Sequence record: EU863408
Direction: 5' to 3' (one strand)
DNA: 64,000 nucleotides
DNA from: Escherichia phage JSE
A program made the position numbers and the translations under genes. The notes beneath the pieces are model-generated. The model worked only from the letters and a program-made list of their open reading frames with translations. It was not told the DNA's origin and did not search any database. Below are positions 7,035 to 55,569 of the stretch, piece by piece; within the stretch, counting starts at the first letter, position 1; each line of letters starts with the position of its first letter.

Positions 7035-7805
7035 ATGAATATTATCCGAATAAAACTGCCGGAAGGTGTGCAGAGATTTAAACCATTCACGGTAAAAGAT
7101 TATAGAGATTTCCTTCTGGTGTCAACTGAAATTAAGATGAATCCAGAAGAAGAACAAACGATTCTGGATGAGCTATTAGAAGAAATATATCCAGAAGTAG
7201 ATCCGGCATTTCGTGAATATATTTTCCTGAATGTCTTTACTAGCTCAATTGGTAAAACAAAGATACCGCTTTGTTTTACTTGCCCGACTTGCAACAAAGA
7301 AAGAAAAATGTTGCTTAACTTACAGGTTGAAGCACTAAAACCAATCGTTCTAGAGGCCGCAGGGCTTAAAATAACTTTCCGGTATGTTAAACCATCAACC
7401 GACTATGCAAAAACGTTTCTGGATGCGATAGAGCGTGTATCTGATGGTATTAATGATTATCTATGGACTGAATTACCGGAAGAAGTTAGAGAACAGGTTA
7501 TCGATTCAATCTCATTTGCTGAATTTGAAGAAGTTGTTAAGCAGATGCACACAATCAAGATCGAACAAAAGATATCTTGTTGTGAAAGTCATGACCTGAA
7601 ATACATAGGTCTTCTTCCATTATTCAAATTGTTGTTGAATCCAGATGAGTTATTCATCTTTTATCGAATAAACCATCTATTGGCAAAATCAAATTATTCT
7701 ATCAGTGATCTTATGGATATGTTACCGATTGAGAGAAACATTGCACTGACACTGGTCGAGAAAGACGTAAAAGAGGCAAATAATGCAAAGAACGGGGTTT
7801 CCTAA
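7035..7805 (+). CDS. 51: baseplate hub assembly protein gp51
   Basis: 256 aa; synteny 26/51/27; Cys pairs CPTCNKE. Confidence 0.7.
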   Translation: MNIIRIKLPEGVQRFKPFTVKDYRDFLLVSTEIKMNPEEEQTILDELLEEIYPEVDPAFREYIFLNVFTSSIGKTKIPLCFTCPTCNKERKMLLNLQVEALKPIVLEAAGLKITFRYVKPSTDYAKTFLDAIERVSDGINDYLWTELPEEVREQVIDSISFAEFEEVVKQMHTIKIEQKISCCESHDLKYIGLLPLFKLLLNPDELFIFYRINHLLAKSNYSISDLMDMLPIERNIALTLVEKDVKEANNAKNGVS

Positions 7806-8893
7806 TGTCTCAATAAAACTTTATCAGGATTATGAGGCATTTCTAAATCATCGCTTTATAGAGTTGGGTGCTACCTTTGTTACAATGACTCTGCGTGATT
7901 CGATTCGTGGGGTGAATGAAGGATTGTTGCAATTCTATGATAATAAGGCGATGCATACAAAATTAAACGGGAGAGAGATCATTCAGATTTCGCTATCCAC
8001 TGCTAATACAGATGAAGTGTTTAACCGAATCTATGGGATCTCTCATAGTAATGTAACAATTGACCAAAAATCCGACAACATTTTAACATTCCAGTTAAAG
8101 AGCTATCACGAAACACTAAACCTTAAATTTTCTCGCTCATTGACAAATAACGCGGTTAATAACGTAACTAGCATGATTGATGCCATCTATAAGGAAGTTC
8201 CTTTATGGAAACCTACTATAAAGGGTGATAACGTTGTTATTCCTCGTTGTCCGTGGGTTAGTACCATAAATGACTATATGGATTTTGTTAGGGCATACGG
8301 GCAAAGCGTAGAAACCGAGTCTTTCGTGTATTGCTGGGAAGATTTTGATGGTATAACGATTGCTGGATACGATACAATATTAAAAAATGAGCCAATACCA
8401 GCTATAATCTGTGAGCCTAGACTCATGGGGCAATTTATTGATATGTCGCCTAATCTGATGGTTTTTAATTTTGAGTGGCAGACTAAGAGCAATGCTAAAG
8501 TTAAAAAATTCATTTAGCAATGTGACATACACCACTATTGATTTTGTTACTAAGCAGTATAATAAAATTATTGTTGGTAATGGGGATAATATTGCACACT
8601 TTGCTCATGGTGGCGCTTATGGCGATTTAACTTATAAGAATGCGTTTTTGGAAGGTTCTAAACTTGCCACAATAGAACAATATGATTCATATGCTACCGC
8701 CGTGTGTCACGGTAATTTTTCGTTGCGCCCCGGTATGGTTATTCGATTCTTTGATGAGAAGCAACAAGCACGCAATGATTTTATTGTTGACGAAGTGGTG
8801 CATGAAATTAGCCGAGAGCAATCATTAACTCACCTGTATATGATCGGTAACAGCGAAGAATTACAGGAAGTCAAATTTGAAGGTAAGATATAA
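7783..8893 (+). CDS. 27: baseplate hub subunit gp27, reading frame broken by an apparent 1-nt insertion in an A6 run (8503-8508)
   Basis: Two overlapping ORFs (7783-8517, 8471-8893) together align colinearly with T4 gp27 (MLQRPGYPN.., TKSN.., HLYM); junction at a homopolymer. Confidence 0.8.
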
Positions 8894-9411
8894 TGACAGA
8901 AACTAAACCTATGTTAAAATTTGTTGTTCCTGTAAAAAAATTAGAGATAAACGGGAAACATATTAAGATCCCAAAAATGGGGATTAAGCAACATCGATTA
9001 TTAAAAGATGTTCGTAGCTGTGATGAAACATTAAAGATTCTTCTTGATTCAATCTGTCCTGGGTTAAACGCAGCCGAGTCTGAGTTGGTTATGCTTAACC
9101 TTTGTGCGTTTAATGGTAAGTGTCTGGAAGAAAAAGATGGTCTTAAGTTGTCTGATGTATATATTTGTACAGAGACTGAATTTACTTTAAATGGTAAAGT
9201 CTTTAAATTTAAAAATCCAATGTATACTTCTGACCCCATTATCGATGACGCTGATTTCTTGAGTCATCATTATCACGATCCTAGCGTAGACTTCCATGAT
9301 TTCCCAGCTTTTATTATGGATTGGGCTACAGGATTAAGAAAAACTATTGCACTGGATACACCGGAAGGTACTATCTATGGTGGAATTAACATATTGGATC
9401 GCCTATCATGA
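8893..9411 (+). CDS. 28: baseplate hub distal subunit gp28
   Basis: 172 aa; synteny; start overlaps gp27 stop. Confidence 0.75.
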   Translation: MTETKPMLKFVVPVKKLEINGKHIKIPKMGIKQHRLLKDVRSCDETLKILLDSICPGLNAAESELVMLNLCAFNGKCLEEKDGLKLSDVYICTETEFTLNGKVFKFKNPMYTSDPIIDDADFLSHHYHDPSVDFHDFPAFIMDWATGLRKTIALDTPEGTIYGGINILDRLS

Positions 9412-11141
9412 ATGACGCATTAACATCATTTCGCGGGATGCGCAAGGAAGCGGAAGAAAACCCGATTGATAAACTTAACAAATTAGATAAACTTAATTCT
9501 ATTGATAATTTGCAAGCCGCTACCGAATTGGTGGCAGAGACAGTAGAGCAAAAATCTAATGAAGTTGTTGGTGCGGTCGAGGATAACACCGCAGCCAATG
9601 AATTGACGGCAGAAAATACACAATCTACCGCTGGCAATACCCAAAAAACTTATGAAGAATTGCAAAAACTCAATAATTTCTCTTCTCAGATGAATGAGAA
9701 ATTACGTGGTTTTGGTGTTATGATGGAACGTAGATTTGGTGTTGTCAGTAAAATGGCTAGCGGTATTGGTGCGATTGAAGAAGCATTGAAAAAACCGGAA
9801 CAACCGCAAACAATGCCATCACCTCAGCCAGTTTTGCCTACTGTACCGGAACAGCCTAACAATGACAACTATCAAGGTCTTCCAAAGAAAAAACCAGATG
9901 CTGATGACCGAAAGAAAAAGAACGCCACAGATAAGCGTAATGCTGATTCTATGGAAAATCTTCTTAAAGTTGTTCGTGGAGGATTTAAAGAAACCATAGG
10001 TATCTCTAATAAGGTCTTAGGGATGTTATTTAAGATCACTTTGACCGCTATGGCAGAAGCCGCAAAATGGGGTGCTATTTTGATGGGTATTGTTTTTGTC
10101 ATTGATACCCTGATGGTTCATTTCAGATATTGGAGTGATTTATTCGAAACAAAATTCAATGAATTTATGGATAAGGCCGGAGGATGGGCTGGTCCTATTA
10201 GCGATATTTTAACTACTGTTCGTCAGGTTCGAGATTATTGGTCTAAAGGCGAATATGGAGAGTTAATTAAATCTCTTGTTATGGGTATTGGTGATGCATT
10301 CTATAAAACCTTTATCCAACTTGATCGAATTATCACTACGGGTATTGCTAAAATTCTTCGTATGATCCCTGGCATGGGTGATTATGCCGATAAGTTAGAA
10401 TATGGTGCTTTAAAATCTGCTGTCGCTCAAGGCTATACGCCAAATGAAAGAGAACTCGAATTAATGGATAAGGTCGAGTCTGAACACGAAGAAGACAAAT
10501 ATGGAGAGCGCACAGGGTGGACCGGAAAAGCCCGTGATATTGGCGAGGCCATAGGCGAATCTATTAAGGATAAAGTTAACGAAGGTCTTGTTAGTCTGGG
10601 CTGGAGAGATCAAAAGGATGTTGACGCAGAGAAACGACAAGAAGAATTAAAACGCGGAGAATATAAGTCTGTTTCTGCTGAACAACGATCTGCTAGTCGT
10701 AAACTTAGAATTAAAAGCGAGGGCGCGATCAATAATATTAATGAAGTTATGGAGAATTTGAGCGGTGACTATGACAAAGAAAGAATGGGAGAGTTGAAAA
10801 AGGATATTGATGTTTACCGTGAGCAAGTTCAAGATCCTACATTAGTTGAAAGTGATCGTTCTCAGTTAGAGCGTCTTATTGAAAAATTTGATGAGATGTA
10901 TGCTGATAAAACTAAGGGTGTGGTTCCAACTAAATCTGTTCCGGCAACTGAAACGGAAACAGCAAAACAAGCGGAACGTACTGAACAAATGCAGAAACAA
11001 GCTGCAATCCAGCAACAAACGACAAATCAGACCTCAAACGTAAATAATACACAAATTGTAACAAACAATAGAACTATTAAACAGGGTGCACCAACAACTA
11101 GAATTGATGCCCCAGGTACAATTAATATGGGGAACTTTTAA
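9408..11141 (+). CDS. 29: baseplate hub subunit / tail length determinator gp29
   Basis: 577 aa; synteny and size as T4 gp29. Confidence 0.8.
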   Translation: MNDALTSFRGMRKEAEENPIDKLNKLDKLNSIDNLQAATELVAETVEQKSNEVVGAVEDNTAANELTAENTQSTAGNTQKTYEELQKLNNFSSQMNEKLRGFGVMMERRFGVVSKMASGIGAIEEALKKPEQPQTMPSPQPVLPTVPEQPNNDNYQGLPKKKPDADDRKKKNATDKRNADSMENLLKVVRGGFKETIGISNKVLGMLFKITLTAMAEAAKWGAILMGIVFVIDTLMVHFRYWSDLFETKFNEFMDKAGGWAGPISDILTTVRQVRDYWSKGEYGELIKSLVMGIGDAFYKTFIQLDRIITTGIAKILRMIPGMGDYADKLEYGALKSAVAQGYTPNERELELMDKVESEHEEDKYGERTGWTGKARDIGEAIGESIKDKVNEGLVSLGWRDQKDVDAEKRQEELKRGEYKSVSAEQRSASRKLRIKSEGAINNINEVMENLSGDYDKERMGELKKDIDVYREQVQDPTLVESDRSQLERLIEKFDEMYADKTKGVVPTKSVPATETETAKQAERTEQMQKQAAIQQQTTNQTSNVNNTQIVTNNRTIKQGAPTTRIDAPGTINMGNF

Positions 11142-12199
11142 TGAAAATTAGTGTTATCAATGATGCCGTTGATAGCTTTAAAGCGGGGGTTAAAACCTCC
11201 GCTGGTTTTACCTCAAAAAATAAAGGGAAAACATTAACCGCTCAATTCCCCGCTGAACGTGCTAGCGGTAATGATGCTAGCGGTTATTATATCAACGACT
11301 TATATAATAATGGTCTGTTATTCACTGCATACGATTACACATCCCGTACTACTGGATCGTTGCGTGATTTCAGGAAAAAGAAAAATGTTGCTAGCGGTTT
11401 TGGCGGTAGCGTTAATATCGCTGGTTTTGATTTAAATTTGGGTGGGAGAAATGCTGCATTTGACCGAGAGGCAATTGCTAATATTCTTCTTCCTCGTAGT
11501 CAATCTGACGTTGACGCTGCCAGCCATAAGTTTAATGATGTTGGTGAATCTGTTATTTCTCGCGGCGGTGGTACTTTAGGCGGTGCTCTTTCTAATATGG
11601 CATCTACTGCCGTTTTTGGTGGTATCGAAAGTATTACTGGTGGATACCTTGCCGATCACGGTGAACAGATTTATAATACTGCGCGAAGCATGTATGCGGG
11701 TGCTGACGCACGAACGAAAAACTACGTATGGCATCTAACCCCACGTAGTATTGAAGACCTTCGCAATATTCTGATCATATACGAAACGTTTTTAGAGTTG
11801 TCTTATGGTTCTAGTGGTATTTCCAGCACCGCAAAAGAATTAAAAGCGGAAGTTGATGCGTGGTATAAAAATACACTATTGAGCAAATCCACTCCAGCCG
11901 AGGCAAAGAGAAATGATACGCTGTTTGAAGGGATCACCGATTTTCTATCCAACGTAATTACTGTATCTAACCCGACAATATGGATGATCTCTAACTTCGG
12001 CAAGCGTACATCGTTTGAAGGGCGTAGCGATGCATTTGGTCCCGCTCAGATCTCAAGTGTACGTCTGGACAAGTCGCCTGATGGTAAGTTTAATGGCCTT
12101 GCTATTTCTCCTAACTTGCCGAGTACCTTTGTTCTGGAAGTATCATTTAGAGAGATCTTGACACTTTCCCGTGGTACTATATTTGGGAGTGCGGCATAA
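11141..12199 (+). CDS. 48: baseplate tail-tube junction protein gp48
   Basis: 352 aa; synteny; coupled start/stop ATGA. Confidence 0.8.
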   Translation: MKISVINDAVDSFKAGVKTSAGFTSKNKGKTLTAQFPAERASGNDASGYYINDLYNNGLLFTAYDYTSRTTGSLRDFRKKKNVASGFGGSVNIAGFDLNLGGRNAAFDREAIANILLPRSQSDVDAASHKFNDVGESVISRGGGTLGGALSNMASTAVFGGIESITGGYLADHGEQIYNTARSMYAGADARTKNYVWHLTPRSIEDLRNILIIYETFLELSYGSSGISSTAKELKAEVDAWYKNTLLSKSTPAEAKRNDTLFEGITDFLSNVITVSNPTIWMISNFGKRTSFEGRSDAFGPAQISSVRLDKSPDGKFNGLAISPNLPSTFVLEVSFREILTLSRGTIFGSAA

Positions 12200-13131
12200 T
12201 GTTTGATTTAAATGACTTTAACGAACAAGCCGCTAACCTTGACTTTCAGCGATCTAACTTATTCAGCGTGGCATTTGCCACCACTCCAAGTAATAAGACA
12301 CAAGCGATCCTAGAAAGTATGGGTGGTGCGGTATATGATATTATACCAAATGCATTAAATGACTATTTCGGGATTACTCGTGGTGATTATACTGACGCAT
12401 TAACAAATCTTGCTGTACAGGGTGTTAGGCGTGCTGTTGATTCATCTGGTGTCAAAAAGTATCTTTTAGGTGCAATGTCATCCCGCGTAGTTCAATCTCT
12501 TCTGGGGCAATTTGATGTTGGTACATATGCGCTTGACTGGTTCAATATGGCATATAAGACAAGCGGTCTTCTGGTGTATGCTGTTAAGGTTCCAGAAAAC
12601 AGATTGAATTATGAAATGGACCGTAACCACAATGCGCCAAACATTCGAATTACCGGACGTGATTTTGATCCGCTTGTATTGAGCTTTAGAATGGACTCTA
12701 GCGCATCAAACTATAGAGCAATGCAGGATTGGGTTAACTCAGTAGAAGACCCCGTTACAGGGCTTCGTGCGCTTCCTGTTGACGTTGAAGCAGATATTCA
12801 GGTCAACTTACATAACCGAATGGGAGTTCCTCACACGATCATGATGTTTAATGGTTGTGTTCCTGTTGGTGTGAGTGCACCGGAATTAAACTATGAAAAC
12901 AACAACGAAATCACAACATTCGATGTTACTTTCGCATATCGTTCTATGCAAACTGGTGCTGTAGGAGAGCAAGCCGCGCGAGAATGGATTGAGGATAAGG
13001 CAATAAACGCAATAACAAACACTTTCGGTAATAATTTACTTGATAGTGGGTTATCTGCTGCTGGTAATGCTTTATCGCGTCTAAATGGCGTTGGTGGGCG
13101 TGTGGTGAATACTGTCACTAACTGGTTCTGA
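12199..13131 (+). CDS. 54: baseplate tail-tube initiator gp54
   Basis: 310 aa; synteny. Confidence 0.8.
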   Translation: MFDLNDFNEQAANLDFQRSNLFSVAFATTPSNKTQAILESMGGAVYDIIPNALNDYFGITRGDYTDALTNLAVQGVRRAVDSSGVKKYLLGAMSSRVVQSLLGQFDVGTYALDWFNMAYKTSGLLVYAVKVPENRLNYEMDRNHNAPNIRITGRDFDPLVLSFRMDSSASNYRAMQDWVNSVEDPVTGLRALPVDVEADIQVNLHNRMGVPHTIMMFNGCVPVGVSAPELNYENNNEITTFDVTFAYRSMQTGAVGEQAAREWIEDKAINAITNTFGNNLLDSGLSAAGNALSRLNGVGGRVVNTVTNWF

Positions 13132-13140
13132 TAATCGAAA

Positions 13141-13168
13141 GGCGGGGATAATCCCCGCCTTTTTATTT
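13141..13168 (+). terminator. rho-independent terminator after gene 54
   Basis: GGCGGGGA-TAAT-CCCCGCC hairpin followed by TTTTTATTTT. Confidence 0.7.
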
Positions 13169-13648
13169 TGCTAAATCATTGCAATATTTTAGTGCCTTAG
13201 TTTGAAATTCTGCGCTGTTAAGTTCTTCATAACGGTCATAATCACCGTTTAATGCTGCCTTTCTTGCTTCTTGCTCTATCTGCATGTCAGACATGATAAT
13301 ACAGCGATCCCGTGCTTTCATCTTCTCAAGTTGTATAGACTCTTCTTTCTGTTTGCGCAATTCTTCTTGACGCTTCTTTTCTTCTCGTGCTTTCTCTTCC
13401 CGCGCTTCTTTGATTGCATCCTTGAACATCTGCGTTTGTGGTGCTAAACCAACTTTAACGCGATCCACGTCTCGACGTTCCATTTTAGAAATAAAGCATG
13501 ATTCGATCTGATCATCACTTGCATATGCTGCTTTACATTCACGAAGCAAGAAAACCGGATCTGATTTAGCATTCATCATAGCTTCCATGTTAGCACAACC
13601 AGTAAGAATGAATGCAGCCGCAAGACCAATCAGTTTAATCATTTTCAT
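13163..13648 (-). CDS. predicted lipoprotein (161 aa)
   Basis: Signal peptide with lipobox LTGC; Lys/Glu-rich coiled region. Confidence 0.6.
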   Translation of the reverse strand: MKMIKLIGLAAAFILTGCANMEAMMNAKSDPVFLLRECKAAYASDDQIESCFISKMERRDVDRVKVGLAPQTQMFKDAIKEAREEKAREEKKRQEELRKQKEESIQLEKMKARDRCIIMSDMQIEQEARKAALNGDYDRYEELNSAEFQTKALKYCNDLAK

Positions 13649-14469
13649 TTAGTCACCTCACCGAAAATTGTAAATTGTCTACGATTCTCATCGCCGAAAG
13701 ATTCTACTACGTCGTTTACCTTGACGCAAGTCCCGCGCGGTAAAATTACTTCACATTCGCAAGGGTTCCATGCAATGGACCCAACAACAAAACCTTTATG
13801 ATCTTTTACATCAATCACCCATGATACATTACAAGAATGTTGCATCTTTCCGGTCATTGATTCATATCGATTCTCACAATAAAGGCTAGTGCTGTTTGAT
13901 AGCCATCCTCCAAAGATGATCGGTGTCATGCTGGTCGATACAAAGTTTTTAAAGGTAAACTCCTTATCTTCAATGATGCGCTCTATTGTCTGAATGTCAA
14001 GATGTTGACCGCGATAAAGAGTACCGTTTAACTTTTCGGTTTTATCCATGACGCAATCCATCAAATCAACAATCTCTGATATCTCATCGGTCATGTCTTC
14101 TTCGCCTAAGAGAGCACCATTTACCCATTCGTATTGTTCAGACACATAATCACAGATTGCAGTATATTCTTCTGGGGTTATGTTGTTATGTTTGTAATGT
14201 TTGAATACATTATCTCCAAAGTCTTCGGAGTGTACTTCATACATCACATTAATGATTTTCTTGACAAATCCATAATCTTGTGTCTCACGCTCAAGGAAGC
14301 GGATAACCTTCACATAATCATCAAAGTTAATCTGATCGCTGATCATCTCAGTGATCATGTAACCATTAATCCCCTCAATGTCATATGTTTCGATGTAATT
14401 ATCCATACGTTCCATCATTGATTCGCGTGATTCTTCCGAAAGACGAAAATCCTGTAATTGTTTGAACAT
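13645..14469 (-). CDS. Alt-like ADP-ribosyltransferase paralog (274 aa)
   Basis: Shares with the Alt C-terminal domain the ART motifs LYRG, FKNFVSTS, IFGGW and ECEVILPRG. Confidence 0.7.
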   Translation of the reverse strand: MFKQLQDFRLSEESRESMMERMDNYIETYDIEGINGYMITEMISDQINFDDYVKVIRFLERETQDYGFVKKIINVMYEVHSEDFGDNVFKHYKHNNITPEEYTAICDYVSEQYEWVNGALLGEEDMTDEISEIVDLMDCVMDKTEKLNGTLYRGQHLDIQTIERIIEDKEFTFKNFVSTSMTPIIFGGWLSNSTSLYCENRYESMTGKMQHSCNVSWVIDVKDHKGFVVGSIAWNPCECEVILPRGTCVKVNDVVESFGDENRRQFTIFGEVTK

Positions 14470-14490
14470 TTTAAACCTCCCATATAACAG

Positions 14491-14522
14491 AAAACGGGGC
14501 TAGTATAAAACTAGTCCCCGTT
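14491..14522 (-). terminator. terminator-like hairpin between alt and the alt-like gene
   Basis: ACGGGGACTAG-loop-CTAGCCCCGT followed by a T-rich tract on the minus strand. Confidence 0.45.
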
Positions 14523-14547
14523 TGAGTCAACCATTATTTCTTAAAAA

Positions 14548-16599: not shown

Positions 16600-16644
16600 T
16601 TTATATCCTCTAGTTGATAACCTATAAACCTATATTTATGAAAA

Positions 16645-16668
16645 CGGGGCTTAACGCCCCTTTTTATT
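16645..16668. terminator. terminator-like hairpin
   Basis: GGGGC-TTAAC-GCCCC followed by TTTTTATT. Confidence 0.45.
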
Positions 16669-29050: not shown

Positions 29051-29928
29051 TAAAAGTCTCCGTAGTTAACCTGAAAACATTCTACACCAATTGAGCGGTA
29101 CATGTCAACCACTTGATCACGGTCATCTACTGCCAAAACAACATGATAACGCGGTGCAATTTCCGAGAAGAAGATCTCTTTCTTCACTTCATGGTCTGGA
29201 CGTCGATCATTAGTTTCACGCTGGAAGTGATCGCTAGGTTCAATACCCTGTTCACGCAGCCATTGCAGAGTATCTTCTTCGCAAACATCCTCACGCCCTG
29301 AGCATGTAATGATACGATAACCATTATCACGATACAGTTTAAGCATTTCGATCACTTGCGGACGCGGTTTATCTTCTTTGACCTTTGTCCAGTCAAACGG
29401 ATGACGACCGCCCTTATCCGCTAATGTCCCATCAATATCAAAGATCACCGCTTTCGGTAGCATGGTATTCGGTTTGTATACTTCTTGACCCATATATTCC
29501 TGCATAAGATAAAATTGGTTGCGCAGATGAGAAAGTGGAATTGCTTTCTCGCCGCGATAGAAATTACGTTTCTTTAGTGTCTCAAATGATTCATTGAACA
29601 CTTGTTCAGTATACACCGCGTTAAATTCTTTTGCAAGTTCTTTGTAGAATACACGATGTTTTTCTTTCAGGTTGGTATCAGAGATAATGATACTCAATCC
29701 GCGTGATAGAGTCTCGCGAGCAATCATTCTCTGAATAGACTCTACCAGCTTTTCTTTTTCCTTAGTATACTTGTATTTCAAAAGTGAGTCAACACCAAAC
29801 AACATAAGACGAAGATCATCACGATTCACATTACGATAATTACTAAACCGTTTACATGTTTCCATAGCCCATGTAGTTTTACCGGACCCAGAACAACCAA
29901 CGGTTAAAATCACTTCACATTTCGGCAT
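29050..29928 (-). CDS. pseT: polynucleotide 5-prime kinase / 3-prime phosphatase
   Basis: P-loop GCSGSGKTT and HAD motif VIFDIDGTLA; start taken at MPKCEVIL. Confidence 0.85.
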   Translation of the reverse strand: MPKCEVILTVGCSGSGKTTWAMETCKRFSNYRNVNRDDLRLMLFGVDSLLKYKYTKEKEKLVESIQRMIARETLSRGLSIIISDTNLKEKHRVFYKELAKEFNAVYTEQVFNESFETLKKRNFYRGEKAIPLSHLRNQFYLMQEYMGQEVYKPNTMLPKAVIFDIDGTLADKGGRHPFDWTKVKEDKPRPQVIEMLKLYRDNGYRIITCSGREDVCEEDTLQWLREQGIEPSDHFQRETNDRRPDHEVKKEIFFSEIAPRYHVVLAVDDRDQVVDMYRSIGVECFQVNYGDF

Positions 29929-30380
29929 TATTTCTCCTTCGGTTTGCACCGTTCCTCATTAAGTTCTTTGCGATAATAACACATGATCAACTTACTTTCA
30001 AGTGTATATCTCTTAATATCAGCCAACCAGACTCTAAATTTTTGGGAGTCCTCCCACGACATAGAAACTCTAGGTTTACCGTCTATTGTATCCACTTTCA
30101 GGTCAATGTCAACTTTTTCTATTGGTGCTGGTAGTGGAGGATGTAATTTCGGTTCCTGTGAATAATGGTCCATTGTACACGAAGAAAGAGCAAATACAAT
30201 AGGTACAGCGAAGACATGGATTATGGCGGTCTGAAAATTCTTATGTGCTTTCTTAAACAACCAGTGTATCACGAAAATTGAAAACACCATAAGGATAATA
30301 ATGCTTGCACCTATCCCCAGATAATCAACCAGATTAAAATTGCTTATCTGCTCTTGCGTAGGCAATATTTCTATGCTCAT
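29928..30380 (-). CDS. membrane protein (150 aa)
   Basis: Hydrophobic helices. Confidence 0.45.
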   Translation of the reverse strand: MSIEILPTQEQISNFNLVDYLGIGASIIILMVFSIFVIHWLFKKAHKNFQTAIIHVFAVPIVFALSSCTMDHYSQEPKLHPPLPAPIEKVDIDLKVDTIDGKPRVSMSWEDSQKFRVWLADIKRYTLESKLIMCYYRKELNEERCKPKEK

Positions 30381-51689: not shown

Positions 51690-54599
51690 ATGGCAGATTT
51701 AAACAGAATCCAATTTAAACGTACTAGCACGAAAGGTCGTAAACCTGATGCTACTACAATGACGCAAGGTGAACTTGCTATCAACCTGCATGATTATTAT
51801 TTGTTTACAAAAAATGACTCTGGTTCTATTATTAACTTAAGCTGTCCTCCGATCTATGACCGCGATGTTATCATGGCTGGTAAAGTAAAGGGAGATTATT
51901 ACATTTTAGGTAAAACCGCCAATTATCTTGAAGATCAGACAGCGAGAGACCTTAACCGTTTTGGAGCATTCCGTACCAACGGTCTAGATGGATTTTTAGA
52001 TTTGACCTTGCATGTTCCTCATTCTGCTGGCGTTCAACATGGTCGAGGATTTACTTTCCGTTATGCGACTGGCGGATCTCGTGTTGAAACATATGGGTAT
52101 AATGCACAGGGACAAAAAGCATTTAGCTATAAAATGTATCATGAAGGTGATAAACCAACTCCAGGAGAACTGAACGTTTATAGCAAACAAGAAGTAGATA
52201 GAATGTTTGTTAAAAACGTTAAACTTTCTACAGGTTCTGGTGATATCGTTGACGGTTATTTTAAATTAGCGACTGCGATGATTCCACAAGACGGTCGTAG
52301 TGTATTTTTCCGTATTCATGGTGGTAACGGATATAACATTACTGCATACGATCAAGTTGATATTGTAGAAATTGTTATTCGCAGTGGAAATAATCGTCCT
52401 AAAGGTGTTAACGTTATTGCATACCGCCGAAATACAAACAAAGCATTTGATGTTTTGGCTGTTAATACTTCTGGTGATAACTATGATATCTACGTGAAAT
52501 ATCAGCGTTACACTGATAACGTTATTGTTGAATTTGGTAAAAGTGTTGATGTTAATCTGGTAGTCCATGACGTTCCAGACTTTGTTGTTGATCGTCCTGT
52601 TGGCGATAATGTTATTGGCGGTCGCGCGGTAACTCTTTTCAACACCGAAAACAAACGAGGTGTGTTGAGTTTTGACGACAATACACAAAACAGCTATGAT
52701 ATTGTTCACATGAGTAATGATAAAGGTACTGGACGAAAATATATTCGTAAATTCCGTAGTAACTATAATGAAATGATCTGGCATGAGACGGTTCAAGGTA
52801 ACGTATATCGTTTAGCTACTGGAACTACCGACGCAAACGAAGTTCTCAAAATTACCGACCGCACGTTGCAAACTGGCAATGCTGTTTTTGACGGTGGTAA
52901 TAATAATGTTCGTTTACATCGTAAAACCGGAAAAAGTAACTATCTGGAATATTATGATGCCCGTGACGGAGCAAATAAACGTCAGGGATATATTGGGTAT
53001 GGCGATGCCACAACTAACCAGTTGTCAATTATTAACGAACTCTCCGAAGGTAATAACTCGATTTTCTTTAACGAGACAGGTCAAATTTCACTTAACGTAG
53101 GAAAGACAAAAATTGTTCATAGCAACGGACAATATATTTCTACCAACGCCGATAACTATCGTATAATTTATGGTAATTATGGAACATTCTGGCGAAATGA
53201 TAGCGTTAAACTTTATCTCATGTCCACTGCCGAAAATGATAAATGGGGTACTTGGAATAGCTATCGACCATTCATTTACAACCTAACCAGCGGCGATGTT
53301 CAATTGGGTGGTGATGGTAACGAATCGGCATTAACGTTAGAATGTGCTTCTCGTGCCGCTCGCTTTAGTAATGACGTTTACATTAAGAAAGGGCTTTTGA
53401 CTTTCGACGCTGGGCGATTAGGATCTCGCGATTATATTAGATTTAATCATTGGGGCGATAGCAATAACGGTCGCGATAACATCCTACAGATTGAAGACAG
53501 TCAGGGCGCACATTTTACCACTGAACGTGCTATGGGTACTGGTAACATAACAGCACGTTTTAAAGGCTTTGTTCGTGTTGAGTCTGGTGAGATTGCATTT
53601 GATGCTAATCGGGGGTCGCAGTCTCAATTTACCTTACACACATGGGGTAACGAGCAACGCAAACAGGTTTTTGAATGTAAGGATGCTACAAGTTATCACT
53701 GGTATACTGAACGTACTCAGGGTGGCACTGGACCTATTCTGTTCGTTATGGCGGGTAGTCTAAACGTTGGTAGCAATATCACAACAACTGGTCCGGATAT
53801 TACGTTTAAACGCGCTGGCAATAAGCACATCTGGTTTAGAGATCCAAACGGCTTAGAGTTAGGCTTGATGTACTGCGATGATGCTGGTGCTATTCGCTTC
53901 CGTGGTCAGAAACAAGCCCAGGCGTGGAAATTTGCAGATAAAATGATCCAGTTGGAATCTGGCACTGTATCCGGTGGCGGTAATGGCCTGATTCGTGGTG
54001 AAGTTGCTGGCGGTAGTTGGGCTAGCTGGCGTGACCGTGCTGCTGGCCTTATGGTTGGGTGTCCTCAATCAACCAATTCCGCTCATAACATCTGGAAAGC
54101 TACTCATTGGGGTCAATATCACATTGCAGCAATGGGTGTACATGTTCCTAACGGTACTATCGGTGATGCTATAGCTCGCCTAAACGTTCATGACGCCAAC
54201 TTTGACTTTAGCGCCTCCGGTGACATGTCGGCAGGGCGTAACGGTTCGTTTAACGATGTTTATATTCGTTCTGATGCTCGCCTTAAAATCAATAAGGAAG
54301 AGTATAAGGAGAATGCCACTGATAAAGTTAATCGCTTGACTGTGTACACCTACGATAAGGTTAAATCTTTAACTGACCGTAGTGTTATCGCCCATGAAGT
54401 TGGTATTATTGCTCAGGATCTTGAGAAAGAATTGCCGGAAGCAGTAACAACTTCTAAGGTCGGCGACCCAGATAAACCAGAAGAGATCTTAACAATTTCT
54501 AACTCTGCTGTCAACGCTCTTTTAATTAAGGCGTTTCAGGAAATGAGCGAAGAATTGAAAGCCGTTAAAGCTGAACTAGCGGAACTTAAAAAGAATTAA
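51690..54599 (+). CDS. 37: long tail fiber distal subunit gp37 with C-terminal intramolecular chaperone-like domain
   Basis: N-terminus MADLNRIQFKR..GELAINL resembles T4 gp37; C-terminal segment with SDARLK motif and terminal coiled coil. Confidence 0.8.
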   Translation: MADLNRIQFKRTSTKGRKPDATTMTQGELAINLHDYYLFTKNDSGSIINLSCPPIYDRDVIMAGKVKGDYYILGKTANYLEDQTARDLNRFGAFRTNGLDGFLDLTLHVPHSAGVQHGRGFTFRYATGGSRVETYGYNAQGQKAFSYKMYHEGDKPTPGELNVYSKQEVDRMFVKNVKLSTGSGDIVDGYFKLATAMIPQDGRSVFFRIHGGNGYNITAYDQVDIVEIVIRSGNNRPKGVNVIAYRRNTNKAFDVLAVNTSGDNYDIYVKYQRYTDNVIVEFGKSVDVNLVVHDVPDFVVDRPVGDNVIGGRAVTLFNTENKRGVLSFDDNTQNSYDIVHMSNDKGTGRKYIRKFRSNYNEMIWHETVQGNVYRLATGTTDANEVLKITDRTLQTGNAVFDGGNNNVRLHRKTGKSNYLEYYDARDGANKRQGYIGYGDATTNQLSIINELSEGNNSIFFNETGQISLNVGKTKIVHSNGQYISTNADNYRIIYGNYGTFWRNDSVKLYLMSTAENDKWGTWNSYRPFIYNLTSGDVQLGGDGNESALTLECASRAARFSNDVYIKKGLLTFDAGRLGSRDYIRFNHWGDSNNGRDNILQIEDSQGAHFTTERAMGTGNITARFKGFVRVESGEIAFDANRGSQSQFTLHTWGNEQRKQVFECKDATSYHWYTERTQGGTGPILFVMAGSLNVGSNITTTGPDITFKRAGNKHIWFRDPNGLELGLMYCDDAGAIRFRGQKQAQAWKFADKMIQLESGTVSGGGNGLIRGEVAGGSWASWRDRAAGLMVGCPQSTNSAHNIWKATHWGQYHIAAMGVHVPNGTIGDAIARLNVHDANFDFSASGDMSAGRNGSFNDVYIRSDARLKINKEEYKENATDKVNRLTVYTYDKVKSLTDRSVIAHEVGIIAQDLEKELPEAVTTSKVGDPDKPEEILTISNSAVNALLIKAFQEMSEELKAVKAELAELKKN

Positions 54600-54912: not shown

Positions 54913-55569
54913 ATGCAAGTTTCTGAAAAAGGGAAAGACTTTGCTATCTCAAATGTCCTGCGCGCTATTTTCACAACTAAAAGCACGGAGTTGCTCGTAC
55001 TTCGTGTTTTTGCTGCCGTCGTGTTGTCCATATTGGCATTTGTCGTTTATAGTAAAAACGAGTTATTTGCGCTTTATAAAGAGACTCGTTATGAGACTTA
55101 TGCTCACATTCTCCAGGTAGAGAAAGACCGCAATTTTGATAATGCAGCACAGGAGCAGTTACAGATAGTTCATGTATCGGCTGATGCCGATTTTTCTGCT
55201 GTTTTTAGTTTTCGTCCGAAAAACCTAAACTATTTTGTTGATTTGGTGGCATATGAAGGAAAGCTACCGCATACAATCGATGAAAAGAATTTAGGCGGAT
55301 TCCCTATCAATAAAACGAGTGAAGAATATCGTAGGCATCTTTTAGGTAAATCATATTTTACCGATAAAGATTTCCAGTATATTCCATCAAGAGAAAAGAA
55401 ATTAGAGAGTATCGATATAGGGGTTATGTATTCTTGTCCTATATTCAATCTCGACAATGTCTATTCTGGTAGTATCTCCATTGCATGGAAGAATAAACCG
55501 GATATTGACATTGAGAATTTAGATACTCTTTGCAATCAATCTGCCAGAATCCTCGGAAGGATTAGATAA
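54913..55569 (+). CDS. t: holin
   Basis: 218 aa; close to T4 holin T (LQIVH.S.DADFSAV.SFRPKNLNYFVD..AYEGKLP, YSCP.FNLDN.Y.G, ARILGR). Confidence 0.85.
   Translation: MQVSEKGKDFAISNVLRAIFTTKSTELLVLRVFAAVVLSILAFVVYSKNELFALYKETRYETYAHILQVEKDRNFDNAAQEQLQIVHVSADADFSAVFSFRPKNLNYFVDLVAYEGKLPHTIDEKNLGGFPINKTSEEYRRHLLGKSYFTDKDFQYIPSREKKLESIDIGVMYSCPIFNLDNVYSGSISIAWKNKPDIDIENLDTLCNQSARILGRIR

Follow-up and report, generated by a model that had tools for sequence, protein, structure and literature searches.

A predicted outer-membrane lipoprotein with an exchangeable mature domain at the end of the Krischvirus alt block: a candidate post-adsorption exclusion factor

What is a lipoprotein doing at the end of the alt block of a T4-type phage? 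We take up this question for a 161-amino-acid open reading frame (ORF) in a 64,000-nucleotide stretch of the genome of Escherichia phage JSE (sequence record EU863408), the whole of which we call the window. The window is part of an RB49-like (Krischvirus) T4-type coliphage genome: 49 phage records match the 161-amino-acid ORF at 90-99% identity, and all of them are Krischvirus, RB49, phi1, GEC-3S, and ECD7 among them. Our search of the literature found no study of the gene. We report that its product is very probably an exported lipoprotein with an invariant scaffold, and that, as sequence comparisons show, its mature part has been exchanged between phages. Our best guess at its function, which we offer tentatively, is that it is a post-adsorption exclusion factor. 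What is new here is the definition of the family and its invariant scaffold, the fixed operon context, the precise replacement of a cassette within the gene, and a set of negative co-variation tests of the model provided by the T5 lipoprotein Llp.

Lipoprotein signal, family, and architecture

The N terminus of the protein, MKMIKLIGLAAAFILTGC, consists of a predicted signal peptide (residues 1-17, MKMIKLIGLAAAFILTG) followed by Cys18-Ala19-Asn20 (CAN). With Lys2 and Lys5 in the n-region, a 10-residue h-region (LIGLAAAFIL), and the lipobox LTGC that includes Cys18, it conforms to the PROSITE PS51257-type rule, which we coded as a charged n-region, a hydrophobic h-region, and a lipobox of the form [LVI][ASTVI][GAS]C with the Cys at position 15-35. 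Among 1541 candidate starts in the six frames of the window (ORFs of at least 40 amino acids), 10 conform to this rule, and only 2 of the 10 are in real genes, namely, the 161-amino-acid ORF and an Rz1-like o-spanin (29928..30272). A complete Krischvirus genome yields an identical pair of lipoprotein genes. Judged by this rule, the 161-amino-acid protein is the only credible lipoprotein of the genome besides the Rz1-type spanin. The Gly17-Cys18 pair of the lipobox is invariant in 12 sequences that diverge down to 24% identity, which excludes a chance lipobox. The original prediction, made from the DNA letters alone, had described a phage-encoded lipoprotein with a signal peptide and an LTGC lipobox, and every sequence test that we ran (the PS51257-type rule and the invariance of the Gly-Cys pair) agrees with it.

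Of 10 lineages, 9 have Ala at +2 and the other has Ser, the +3 residue of the window protein is Asn, and there is no Asp at +2, which would be an inner-membrane retention signal. The rule by which the E. coli Lol system sorts lipoproteins according to the +2 residue is established, and with Ala at this position, sorting to the outer membrane is expected. We infer a Lol-sorted, outer-membrane location for the 161-amino-acid protein. A few database records already label it a lipoprotein ("putative lipoprotein" in phage W115 and "Lipoprotein" in UniRef for KFS-EC), and most others call the ORF a "hypothetical protein." In phage E26 (MN655998.1 112057-112569; L027 1201-1713), an intact lipoprotein ORF of 170 amino acids, of the allele that we call C1 below, is unannotated.

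The ORF is a member of phrog_16112, a family of unknown function (E 3.5e-109, with residues 1-161 on profile positions 1-161). This is the sole family match, as searches of Pfam, NCBIfam, PADLOC, and PDB sequences returned only sub-threshold noise or matches to the signal peptide, and fold searches of PDB and BFVD gave no match outside the lipoprotein's own family. When 5.8 billion protein clusters were searched with a word index, 39 proteins came up, almost all of them more than 77% identical and two ~30% identical, and a profile search of 1.84 billion representative proteins found 12 matches, 10 of which are 155-174 amino acids long and have a lipobox. The long profile matches P0047 and P0049 are eukaryotic repeat proteins that were matched through charged or repetitive segments, and we rejected them as spurious. 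All ten metagenomic places where the family was found (nine family members) encode Alt, a short Alt-like ADP-ribosyltransferase (ART) of 264-282 amino acids, the lipoprotein, and the convergent block gp54-gp48-gp29. At least 10 lineages, with identities as low as 20%, have kept the lipoprotein at this one locus. Compared with two diverged relatives (82-85% amino acid identity), the gene has a dN/dS of ~0.12, which is like that of the neighboring structural genes. Based on this value and on retention at one locus in every lineage found, the gene is judged to be functional and under purifying selection. In T4, Kanagawavirus, and Jiaodavirus, the position of the lipoprotein gene is occupied by the small, non-lipoprotein alt.-3, while in Aeromonas phage 44RR the locus contains only two Alt paralogues, and Pseudotevenvirus has a different gene order. 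Since these other Straboviridae genera have no lipoprotein at the locus, its presence there is specific to the Krischvirus lineage.

AlphaFold2 modeling on the family alignment gave a mean pLDDT of 87.6, with helices at residues 31-41, 45-65, 72-133, 137-143, and 146-160, and a model of a C-type allele (pLDDT 82.3) keeps the order of the helices, with the long helix interrupted once. These models predict with confidence that the mature protein is an all-helical rod. The 64 residues between Cys51 and Cys116 are 55% Asp, Glu, Lys, or Arg and form 10 i/i+4 pairs of opposite charge; this composition and the 62-residue helix modeled at residues 72-133 bear out the Lys/Glu-rich helical region that had been proposed initially. 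The C terminus, ...KYCNDLAK, has no transmembrane helix and is not proline rich. In the same 12 sequences, the invariant positions are Met1, the lipobox Gly-Cys, Cys38, Cys51, Cys116, Cys156, Asp60, Gly67, and Gly135. Nine of 10 lineages have Cys116 and Cys156 exactly 40 residues apart, and the Cys51-Cys116 spacing ranges from 55 to 69 residues. We infer that disulfides probably join Cys38 to Cys51 and Cys116 to Cys156, each stapling one end of the rod. The presence of four invariant Cys residues with fixed spacing fits an oxidizing compartment. In a metagenomic allele-A2 variant (P0033), the charged helix has an 11-residue tandem duplication, EEESRKENKHQ, at the position of window residues ~89-99, so that the natural length of the rod can shift by about three helical turns.

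Exchange of the mature domain among Krischvirus phages

Seven Krischvirus records have, at the identical locus, a protein that is only 29-32% identical to that of the window. We call the form found in the window and in 49 records allele A. Allele B is found in Whisky and JK32 and is 29-31% identical to A and 46-49% identical to C, allele C1 is found in 011D4, E26, and PHB13, and allele C2, found in PTE-Eco09 and AV108, is 91% identical to C1 and differs from it in the C-terminal domain. The phages with alleles other than A have Alt and short ART proteins that are 96-100% identical to those of the window, while their mature lipoproteins are 24-27% identical to the window's. Across this divergence of the mature part, the signal peptide is nearly unchanged. 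When the DNA of 011D4 is aligned with the window, the flanks are 98-100% identical and identity falls to the background level from just past the signal-peptide codons to the terminator. The terminator hairpin that follows the gene forms the right-hand edge of the replaced cassette, where identity to 011D4 returns to 100%. In the 82-85%-identical relatives, dS is ~0.2-0.5 in Alt, ART, and the first half of the lipoprotein gene, and ~0.8-1.4 or more in its second half and in gp54, gp48, and gp29. This jump in dS indicates a recombination breakpoint inside the gene. Based on these alignments, we conclude that either the whole mature domain or its C-terminal half has been replaced on repeated occasions. 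The pattern is a clean case of domain exchange inside a gene, in which the mature domain is swapped between a conserved stretch that encodes the signal peptide and a terminator hairpin, and cassette exchange that affects the exposed part suggests that the protein acts at the cell envelope.

If the lipoprotein blocked the phage's own receptor (receptor blocking was one of the roles envisaged in the original prediction) in the manner of Llp, its allele would be expected to follow the receptor-binding proteins. We compared the lipoprotein allele with the gp37 tip, gp29, gp5, and gp54, and there is no one-to-one mapping with any of them. The gp37 tips of allele-A phages, whose lipoproteins are at least 98% identical to that of the window, are 94% (TB34), 84%, 62%, 61%, 42%, and 38% identical to the window's gp37 tip. 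The tips of the allele-C phages PHB13 and PTE-Eco09 are 78% and 72% identical to it, with lipoproteins that are only ~29% identical. Published screens have identified Tsx as the receptor of Krischvirus FL04 and FL15 and OmpA as that of FL20 (PMC12032242), and all three phages have allele A, with lipoproteins 98.8% identical to the window's. Similarly, gp38 and gp12 of Whisky49 are almost identical to those of RB49 and Cognac49, and gp38 of Brandy49 is divergent (PMC9569957); Whisky49 has allele B, and RB49, Cognac49, and Brandy49 all have allele A. Furthermore, the lipoprotein gene lies between ART and gp54 and adjoins no receptor-binding-protein gene. Because the allele varies independently of the receptor-binding proteins, the lipoprotein is unlikely to mask the phage's own receptor, and this part of the original prediction is disfavored by the independence of the allele from the gp37 tip, from gp38 and gp12, and from the use of Tsx or OmpA, by the position of the gene, and by a likeness to the Cor lipoproteins that is confined to the signal peptide.

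The tube and tape-measure genes give a less simple picture. The gp29 proteins of phages with alleles A and C1 are 95-99% identical, while those of JK32 (allele B), PTE-Eco09, and AV108 (both C2) are 54% identical, and gp54 splits in the same way. All three records with this divergent tube/tape-measure block have alleles other than A, and the 3' half of the lipoprotein gene is often co-inherited with the block. Physical linkage explains this association as well as a functional relationship does. Considered apart from the lipoprotein, JK32 (L002), PTE-Eco09 (L025), and AV108 (L026) have a gp29 that is 54% identical to that of the other 53 records, a gp48 that is ~75% identical, and a gp54 that is ~86% identical, and an exchange of the complete tube/tape-measure module within Krischvirus seems to have occurred.

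Two features of the window's own gp37 gene (51690..54599, +) were also observed. It is followed directly by the holin gene t (54913..55569, +), with no gp38 adhesin gene between them, unlike the arrangement in several Krischviruses. The last ~470 residues of its product are highly mosaic: the best database phage is 94% identical over this region, which is also ~40% identical to the lateral tail fibers of T5-like and other siphoviruses.

Operon context and predicted expression

The features of the locus are listed in Table 1. On the minus strand, Alt, the short ART, the lipoprotein ORF, and the terminator hairpin follow one another in that order up to the convergent gp54, as expected from the initial placement of the gene at the end of the alt block. 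The ATG of the lipoprotein gene overlaps the TGA stop of the ART ORF (ATGA, 13645-13648), and in most lineages the two genes likewise overlap or abut, seven other lineages having either this very junction or an overlapping or abutting one. Based on this overlap and the position of the Shine-Dalgarno sequence, the lipoprotein gene is the predicted second, translationally coupled cistron behind the short ART.

Table 1. Features of the lipoprotein locus and of the encoded protein in the window
Feature	Position	Strand	Basis or remarks
gp29 gene (tape measure), 5' of gp48	9408..11141	+	
gp48 gene, 5' of gp54	11141..12199	+	
gp54 gene (baseplate tail-tube initiator), convergent with lipoprotein gene	12199..13131	+	ORF list, profile matches
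Predicted bidirectional terminator hairpin between lipoprotein stop and convergent gp54	13137..13163	.	12-bp stem; -20.5 kcal/mol, z -5.4
Lipoprotein gene, 161 amino acids plus stop	13163..13648	-	ORF list; ATG start
C-terminal helices, residues 137-160	13169..13240	-	Invariant Cys156; AlphaFold2 and alignment
Long helix, residues 72-133 (62 residues; ~9 nm if straight)	13250..13435	-	Invariant Cys116; AlphaFold2
Glu/Lys/Arg-rich middle of long helix, about residues 79-113	13310-13414	-	
N-terminal helical hairpin, residues 31-65	13454..13558	-	Invariant Cys38 and Cys51, conserved [KR][KR]D60 motif; AlphaFold2 helices 31-41 and 45-65, pLDDT >90
Lipobox L15-T16-G17-C18	13595..13606	-	Cys18, predicted acylated first residue; Ala19 at +2
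Signal peptide, residues 1-17	13598..13648	-	PS51257-type rule; predicted signal peptidase II cut before Cys18
Short Alt-like ART gene, 274 amino acids, always 5' of lipoprotein gene	13645..14469	-	Lacks the Alt N-terminal region; PF03496 E 9e-16; phrog_15144
Shine-Dalgarno GAGGTG, 5 nt 5' of lipoprotein ATG	13654..13659	-	Sequence; within the end of the ART gene
PeSL-type element	14490..14535	-	sigma70-like promoter TTGACT-17-TATACT (14530..14502) overlapping a G/C stem-loop, then a T-run
Full-length Alt gene, 683 amino acids	14548..16599	-	phrog_802 E 1.6e-179

The PeSL-type element is predicted to be both the early promoter of the ART-lipoprotein bicistron and a terminator or attenuator for Alt. 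A PeSL element is kept before ART in diverged lineages (L006, L008, and L015), as TTGAC(A/T)-17-TATACT with compensatory changes in the stem, and strong early promoter activity as well as terminator activity have been shown for PeSL elements in RB49 and phi1 (PMC2839356). No T4-type late promoter (TATAAATA) was found near the ART-lipoprotein operon on the minus strand. Taken together, the conserved sigma70/PeSL promoter, the published activity of such elements, and the lack of a nearby late promoter make early expression of the lipoprotein likely.

Upstream, CATAAATA at 16633-16640 (-) differs from TATAAATA by one mismatch and is located ~35 nt before the Alt start, just past a terminator hairpin at 16646-16660. 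It may be that Alt is transcribed late, as in T4, and that the short ART and the lipoprotein are transcribed from their own early promoter. Two further PeSL-type elements, with consensus or near-consensus sigma70 sequences and a G/C stem-loop that lies over the hexamers or between them, precede small early ORFs at 17191-17163 and 16944-16916 (-).

Elsewhere in the window, an Rz-like i-spanin ORF (29928..30380, -; phrog_812) adjoins the polynucleotide kinase gene pseT, which is the T4 pseT.3/pseT.2 arrangement. The nested o-spanin ORF (GTG start at the position given above, or TTG at 30260) is in the i-spanin frame, ends at the same stop, and has a lipobox followed by a proline-rich stretch (ALSSC...PPLPA). 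RB49 is listed in the T4 spanin family (PMC6139136). The gene for the baseplate hub protein gp27 is split into two ORFs, 7783..8517 and 8471..8893 (+), because of an A6 run at 8503-8508 where the Krischvirus RB49 assembly OZ035808 has A5. The result would be a +1 frameshift in an essential gene, which is most likely a homopolymer sequencing or assembly error.

Candidate functions of the lipoprotein

Superinfection exclusion in a wider sense, the other role named in the original prediction, is still plausible. We tentatively favor an exclusion-type role because of the combination of predicted early export to the envelope, dispensability for the conserved T4 body plan, polymorphism by horizontal replacement, and our failure to detect the T4 exclusion proteins Spackle (Sp) and Imm. 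When Sp and Imm of T4 were compared by tblastn with the complete Krischvirus genome, nothing credible was found and there was no match at the lipoprotein locus; the best Sp match is in frame within gene 41, and Imm has no match. The 61-41 interval, which is the site of sp in T4, has no secreted ORF in Krischvirus. This interval does encode a 52-amino-acid protein with two predicted transmembrane helices (OZ035808 89041-89199, -; L018), which is possibly a small membrane factor.

Under post-adsorption exclusion, the protein would be made early from the sigma70/PeSL promoter as the coupled second cistron behind the short ART. It would then be exported by Sec, acylated at Cys18, cleaved by signal peptidase II, and transferred by Lol to the inner leaflet of the outer membrane. 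The mature 144 residues would form a rigid rod, with the N-terminal hairpin proximal to the membrane, a helix of ~60 residues with a solvent-exposed, charged middle, and a C-terminal helical cap. Such a rod would reach ~9 nm into the periplasm, which is roughly the depth of the murein layer, and a small domain held at this distance below the outer membrane would, according to the model, be well placed to meet the tail tip, its lysozyme, or the tape-measure conduit. The protein would interfere with the tail tip or the DNA conduit as a secondary phage comes in, would in this way exclude that phage at the level of the envelope after it has adsorbed, and would leave the receptor of its own phage unmasked. 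The scaffold would be conserved, while its surface would be exchanged as a cassette between phages, retuning specificity.

The nearest analogue in architecture and proposed mechanism may be Ltp of the Streptococcus thermophilus phage TP-J34, a membrane-tethered lipoprotein with small helical domains that blocks DNA injection via the tape measure protein, although we regard this as an analogy and not as membership in one family. T4 Spackle (gp61.3) is, as predicted for the window protein, small, exported, early, and periplasmic, and its role, stopping a superinfecting tail tip, is the one that we propose for the window protein. In contrast, Spackle is soluble, not lipidated, and 97 amino acids long, and the window protein has no sequence similarity to it and no PDB fold match. 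In addition, the Spackle target gp5 is invariant in Krischvirus, whereas the lipoprotein is highly polymorphic. T4 Imm is also an early exclusion function and is reported to bind the tape measure protein gp29 (preprint, bioRxiv 10.64898/2026.03.06.709160), and the window lipoprotein gene adjoins the gp29-gp48-gp54 block. However, Imm is an inner-membrane, multi-helix protein that is not a lipoprotein and has no homology to the window protein, and the mapping of alleles to gp29 is not one-to-one.

T4 encodes, next to imm, a lipoprotein of unknown function (Imm.1, with the lipobox LAGC) that has four further Cys residues in the same order as those of the window protein. We rejected it as a homologue, as hhalign aligns only the lipobox (probability 4%) and Imm.1 belongs to a different PHROG (phrog_1754). 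The imm.1 gene (NC_000866 26636-27013; L016 10637-11014) is directly 3' of imm and encodes the signal MKIAILVIALGLAGC; its RefSeq label, "iduronate sulfatase," looks like a mis-annotation.

Several observations weigh against the exclusion reading. Neither in sequence nor in fold does the lipoprotein resemble Sp, Imm, Ltp, Llp, or Cor, and its proposed exclusion function is reached by reasoning from context and analogy. All 58 Krischvirus records (011D4 among them) encode a gp5 protein with at least 95% identity, which does not co-vary with the allele, and allele C is found with both the standard (C1) and the divergent (C2) gp29/gp54 blocks. The gene-wide dN/dS indicates purifying rather than positive selection, and the alleles may simply be old lineages that have been moved by recombination at the block boundary. 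Finally, no conserved surface patch is seen in the 12 sequences beyond the Cys residues, the Gly residues, and one Asp, so that a spacer or scaffold role fits as well as an arms race does.

Three rival explanations deserve to be weighed, each of which we consider rather unlikely. The first is receptor masking of the Llp/Cor/Rtp type, in which the lipoprotein would attach to an outer-membrane protein from the periplasmic side and inactivate the phage's own receptor or, more plausibly, that of competitors or colicins, with different alleles aimed at different outer-membrane proteins. Llp of T5 and its BF23/DT57C equivalents, which block FhuA, resemble the window protein in being lipoproteins of virulent phages with a classical lipobox, early expression, and sorting to the outer membrane, and the predicted early expression and outer-membrane sorting of the window protein are thus points in favor of masking. 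Exchange of the exposed part as a cassette would be expected if the targets differ, and published exclusion lipoproteins do bind the periplasmic face of FhuA or LptD (PMC9586334; bioRxiv 10.64898/2026.04.02.716166). However, Llp is encoded beside the gene for the receptor-binding protein to whose receptor it is matched, whereas the Krischvirus gene is apart from such genes and its allele is decoupled from gp37, gp38, and the experimentally assigned receptors. Known maskers such as Llp are also small and compact, in contrast to the predicted 9-nm rod, and Llp has no sequence or fold similarity to the window protein. The Cor proteins of T1-, phi80-, and N15-like phages have nearly the same signal peptide (AAAFILTGC), but homology to Llp or Cor is absent beyond the signal peptide: Cor is 75 amino acids long with a mature part that does not look helical, compared with 161 amino acids and a predicted all-helical fold. 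We rejected the weak tblastn matches to T1-like Cor genes (E about 10), which end a few residues past the Cys and need a 12-residue gap. Masking of heterologous receptors would, moreover, bring little obvious gain to a fast lytic T4-type phage.

The second explanation is that the protein acts in envelope mechanics or lysis control, either as an Lpp-like spacer or tether between the outer membrane and murein, perhaps via its C-terminal Lys, or as a modulator of the timing of holin/spanin lysis or of lysis from without, and stabilizes the envelope of the infected cell until programmed lysis; this too seems doubtful. A ruler needs a conserved length and Cys spacing with a surface that is free to vary, as is seen here, and no conserved binding patch was found. 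The ~9-nm helix is comparable with the length of Lpp, which is likewise an outer-membrane lipoprotein made essentially of one long helix, and the window protein, like Lpp, ends in Lys, as do the proteins of 8 of 10 lineages. The terminal residue is Asn in allele B and in P0045, so that a C-terminal Lys is not essential. Lpp differs in being a trimeric coiled coil with no Cys in its mature chain, whereas the window protein has two Cys pairs and a highly charged helix; no hydrophobic heptad core is evident in the charged segment, so that there is no indication of an Lpp-like trimer. None of t, e, rI, and the spanin genes is in the vicinity of the lipoprotein gene, and a pure spacer would not explain why the mature part has been replaced repeatedly and with precision. 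A bolder version, in which the protein is an Lpp-like ruler attached to murein that alters the geometry of the envelope, appears very unlikely.

The third explanation is a host target in the periplasm or outer membrane, with the lipoprotein serving in takeover or counter-defense (against a stress sensor, protease, phospholipase, nuclease, or prophage envelope defense) and its alleles tracking variation among E. coli strains. The gene is predicted to share a transcript with the gene for a host-takeover enzyme, its alleles show no linkage to virion proteins, so that selection may come from the host side, and Krischviruses infect very diverse E. coli and Shigella. Weighing on the other side, the lipoprotein has no similarity to known inhibitors or anti-defense proteins, and we think this explanation improbable.

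Two other possibilities have much less to recommend them. An immunity or partner protein for the upstream ART, by analogy with toxin-immunity pairs encoded by overlapping genes, is suggested by the ART-lipoprotein adjacency and start/stop overlap that are conserved across lineages. However, the ART has no signal peptide and the lipoprotein is predicted to be exported, which places them in different compartments, and NAD-dependent ARTs are not expected to work in the periplasm. The pairing of ARTs that are 96-100% identical with mature lipoproteins that are 24-27% identical is also the opposite of toxin-immunity co-variation, and the idea, now highly improbable, is largely refuted. Although the outer-membrane lipoproteins of phage genomes are most often o-spanins, an o-spanin or unimolecular spanin is refuted for practical purposes by the T4-type pair present elsewhere (29928..30380) and by the absence of a C-terminal transmembrane helix, a proline-rich region, or an adjacent i-spanin. 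The probability that is left over by post-adsorption exclusion and all of these rivals belongs to something that we have not thought of.

If post-adsorption exclusion is correct, the lipoprotein may represent a previously unrecognized periplasmic class in T4-type phages without Imm and Spackle, a suggestion that we advance with caution. Such proteins would be fixed-length rods, tethered to the outer membrane and stapled by disulfides, whose specificity is reset by swapping the mature domain. This would explain the exclusion of competitors by T4-type phages that lack Imm and Sp, and it would be a third structural solution, beside the compact maskers Llp and Cor and the inner-membrane or soluble proteins Imm and Sp. 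E. coli phage-therapy collections and cocktails commonly include Krischviruses (RB49, phi1, GEC-3S, ECD7, and a large number of more recent isolates), and a protein that governs secondary infection or the behavior of the envelope would affect the mutual interference of cocktail members. Even if its function proves to be mundane, the protein is the sole non-spanin lipoprotein of the Krischviruses, in whose records it is mostly either unannotated or "hypothetical."

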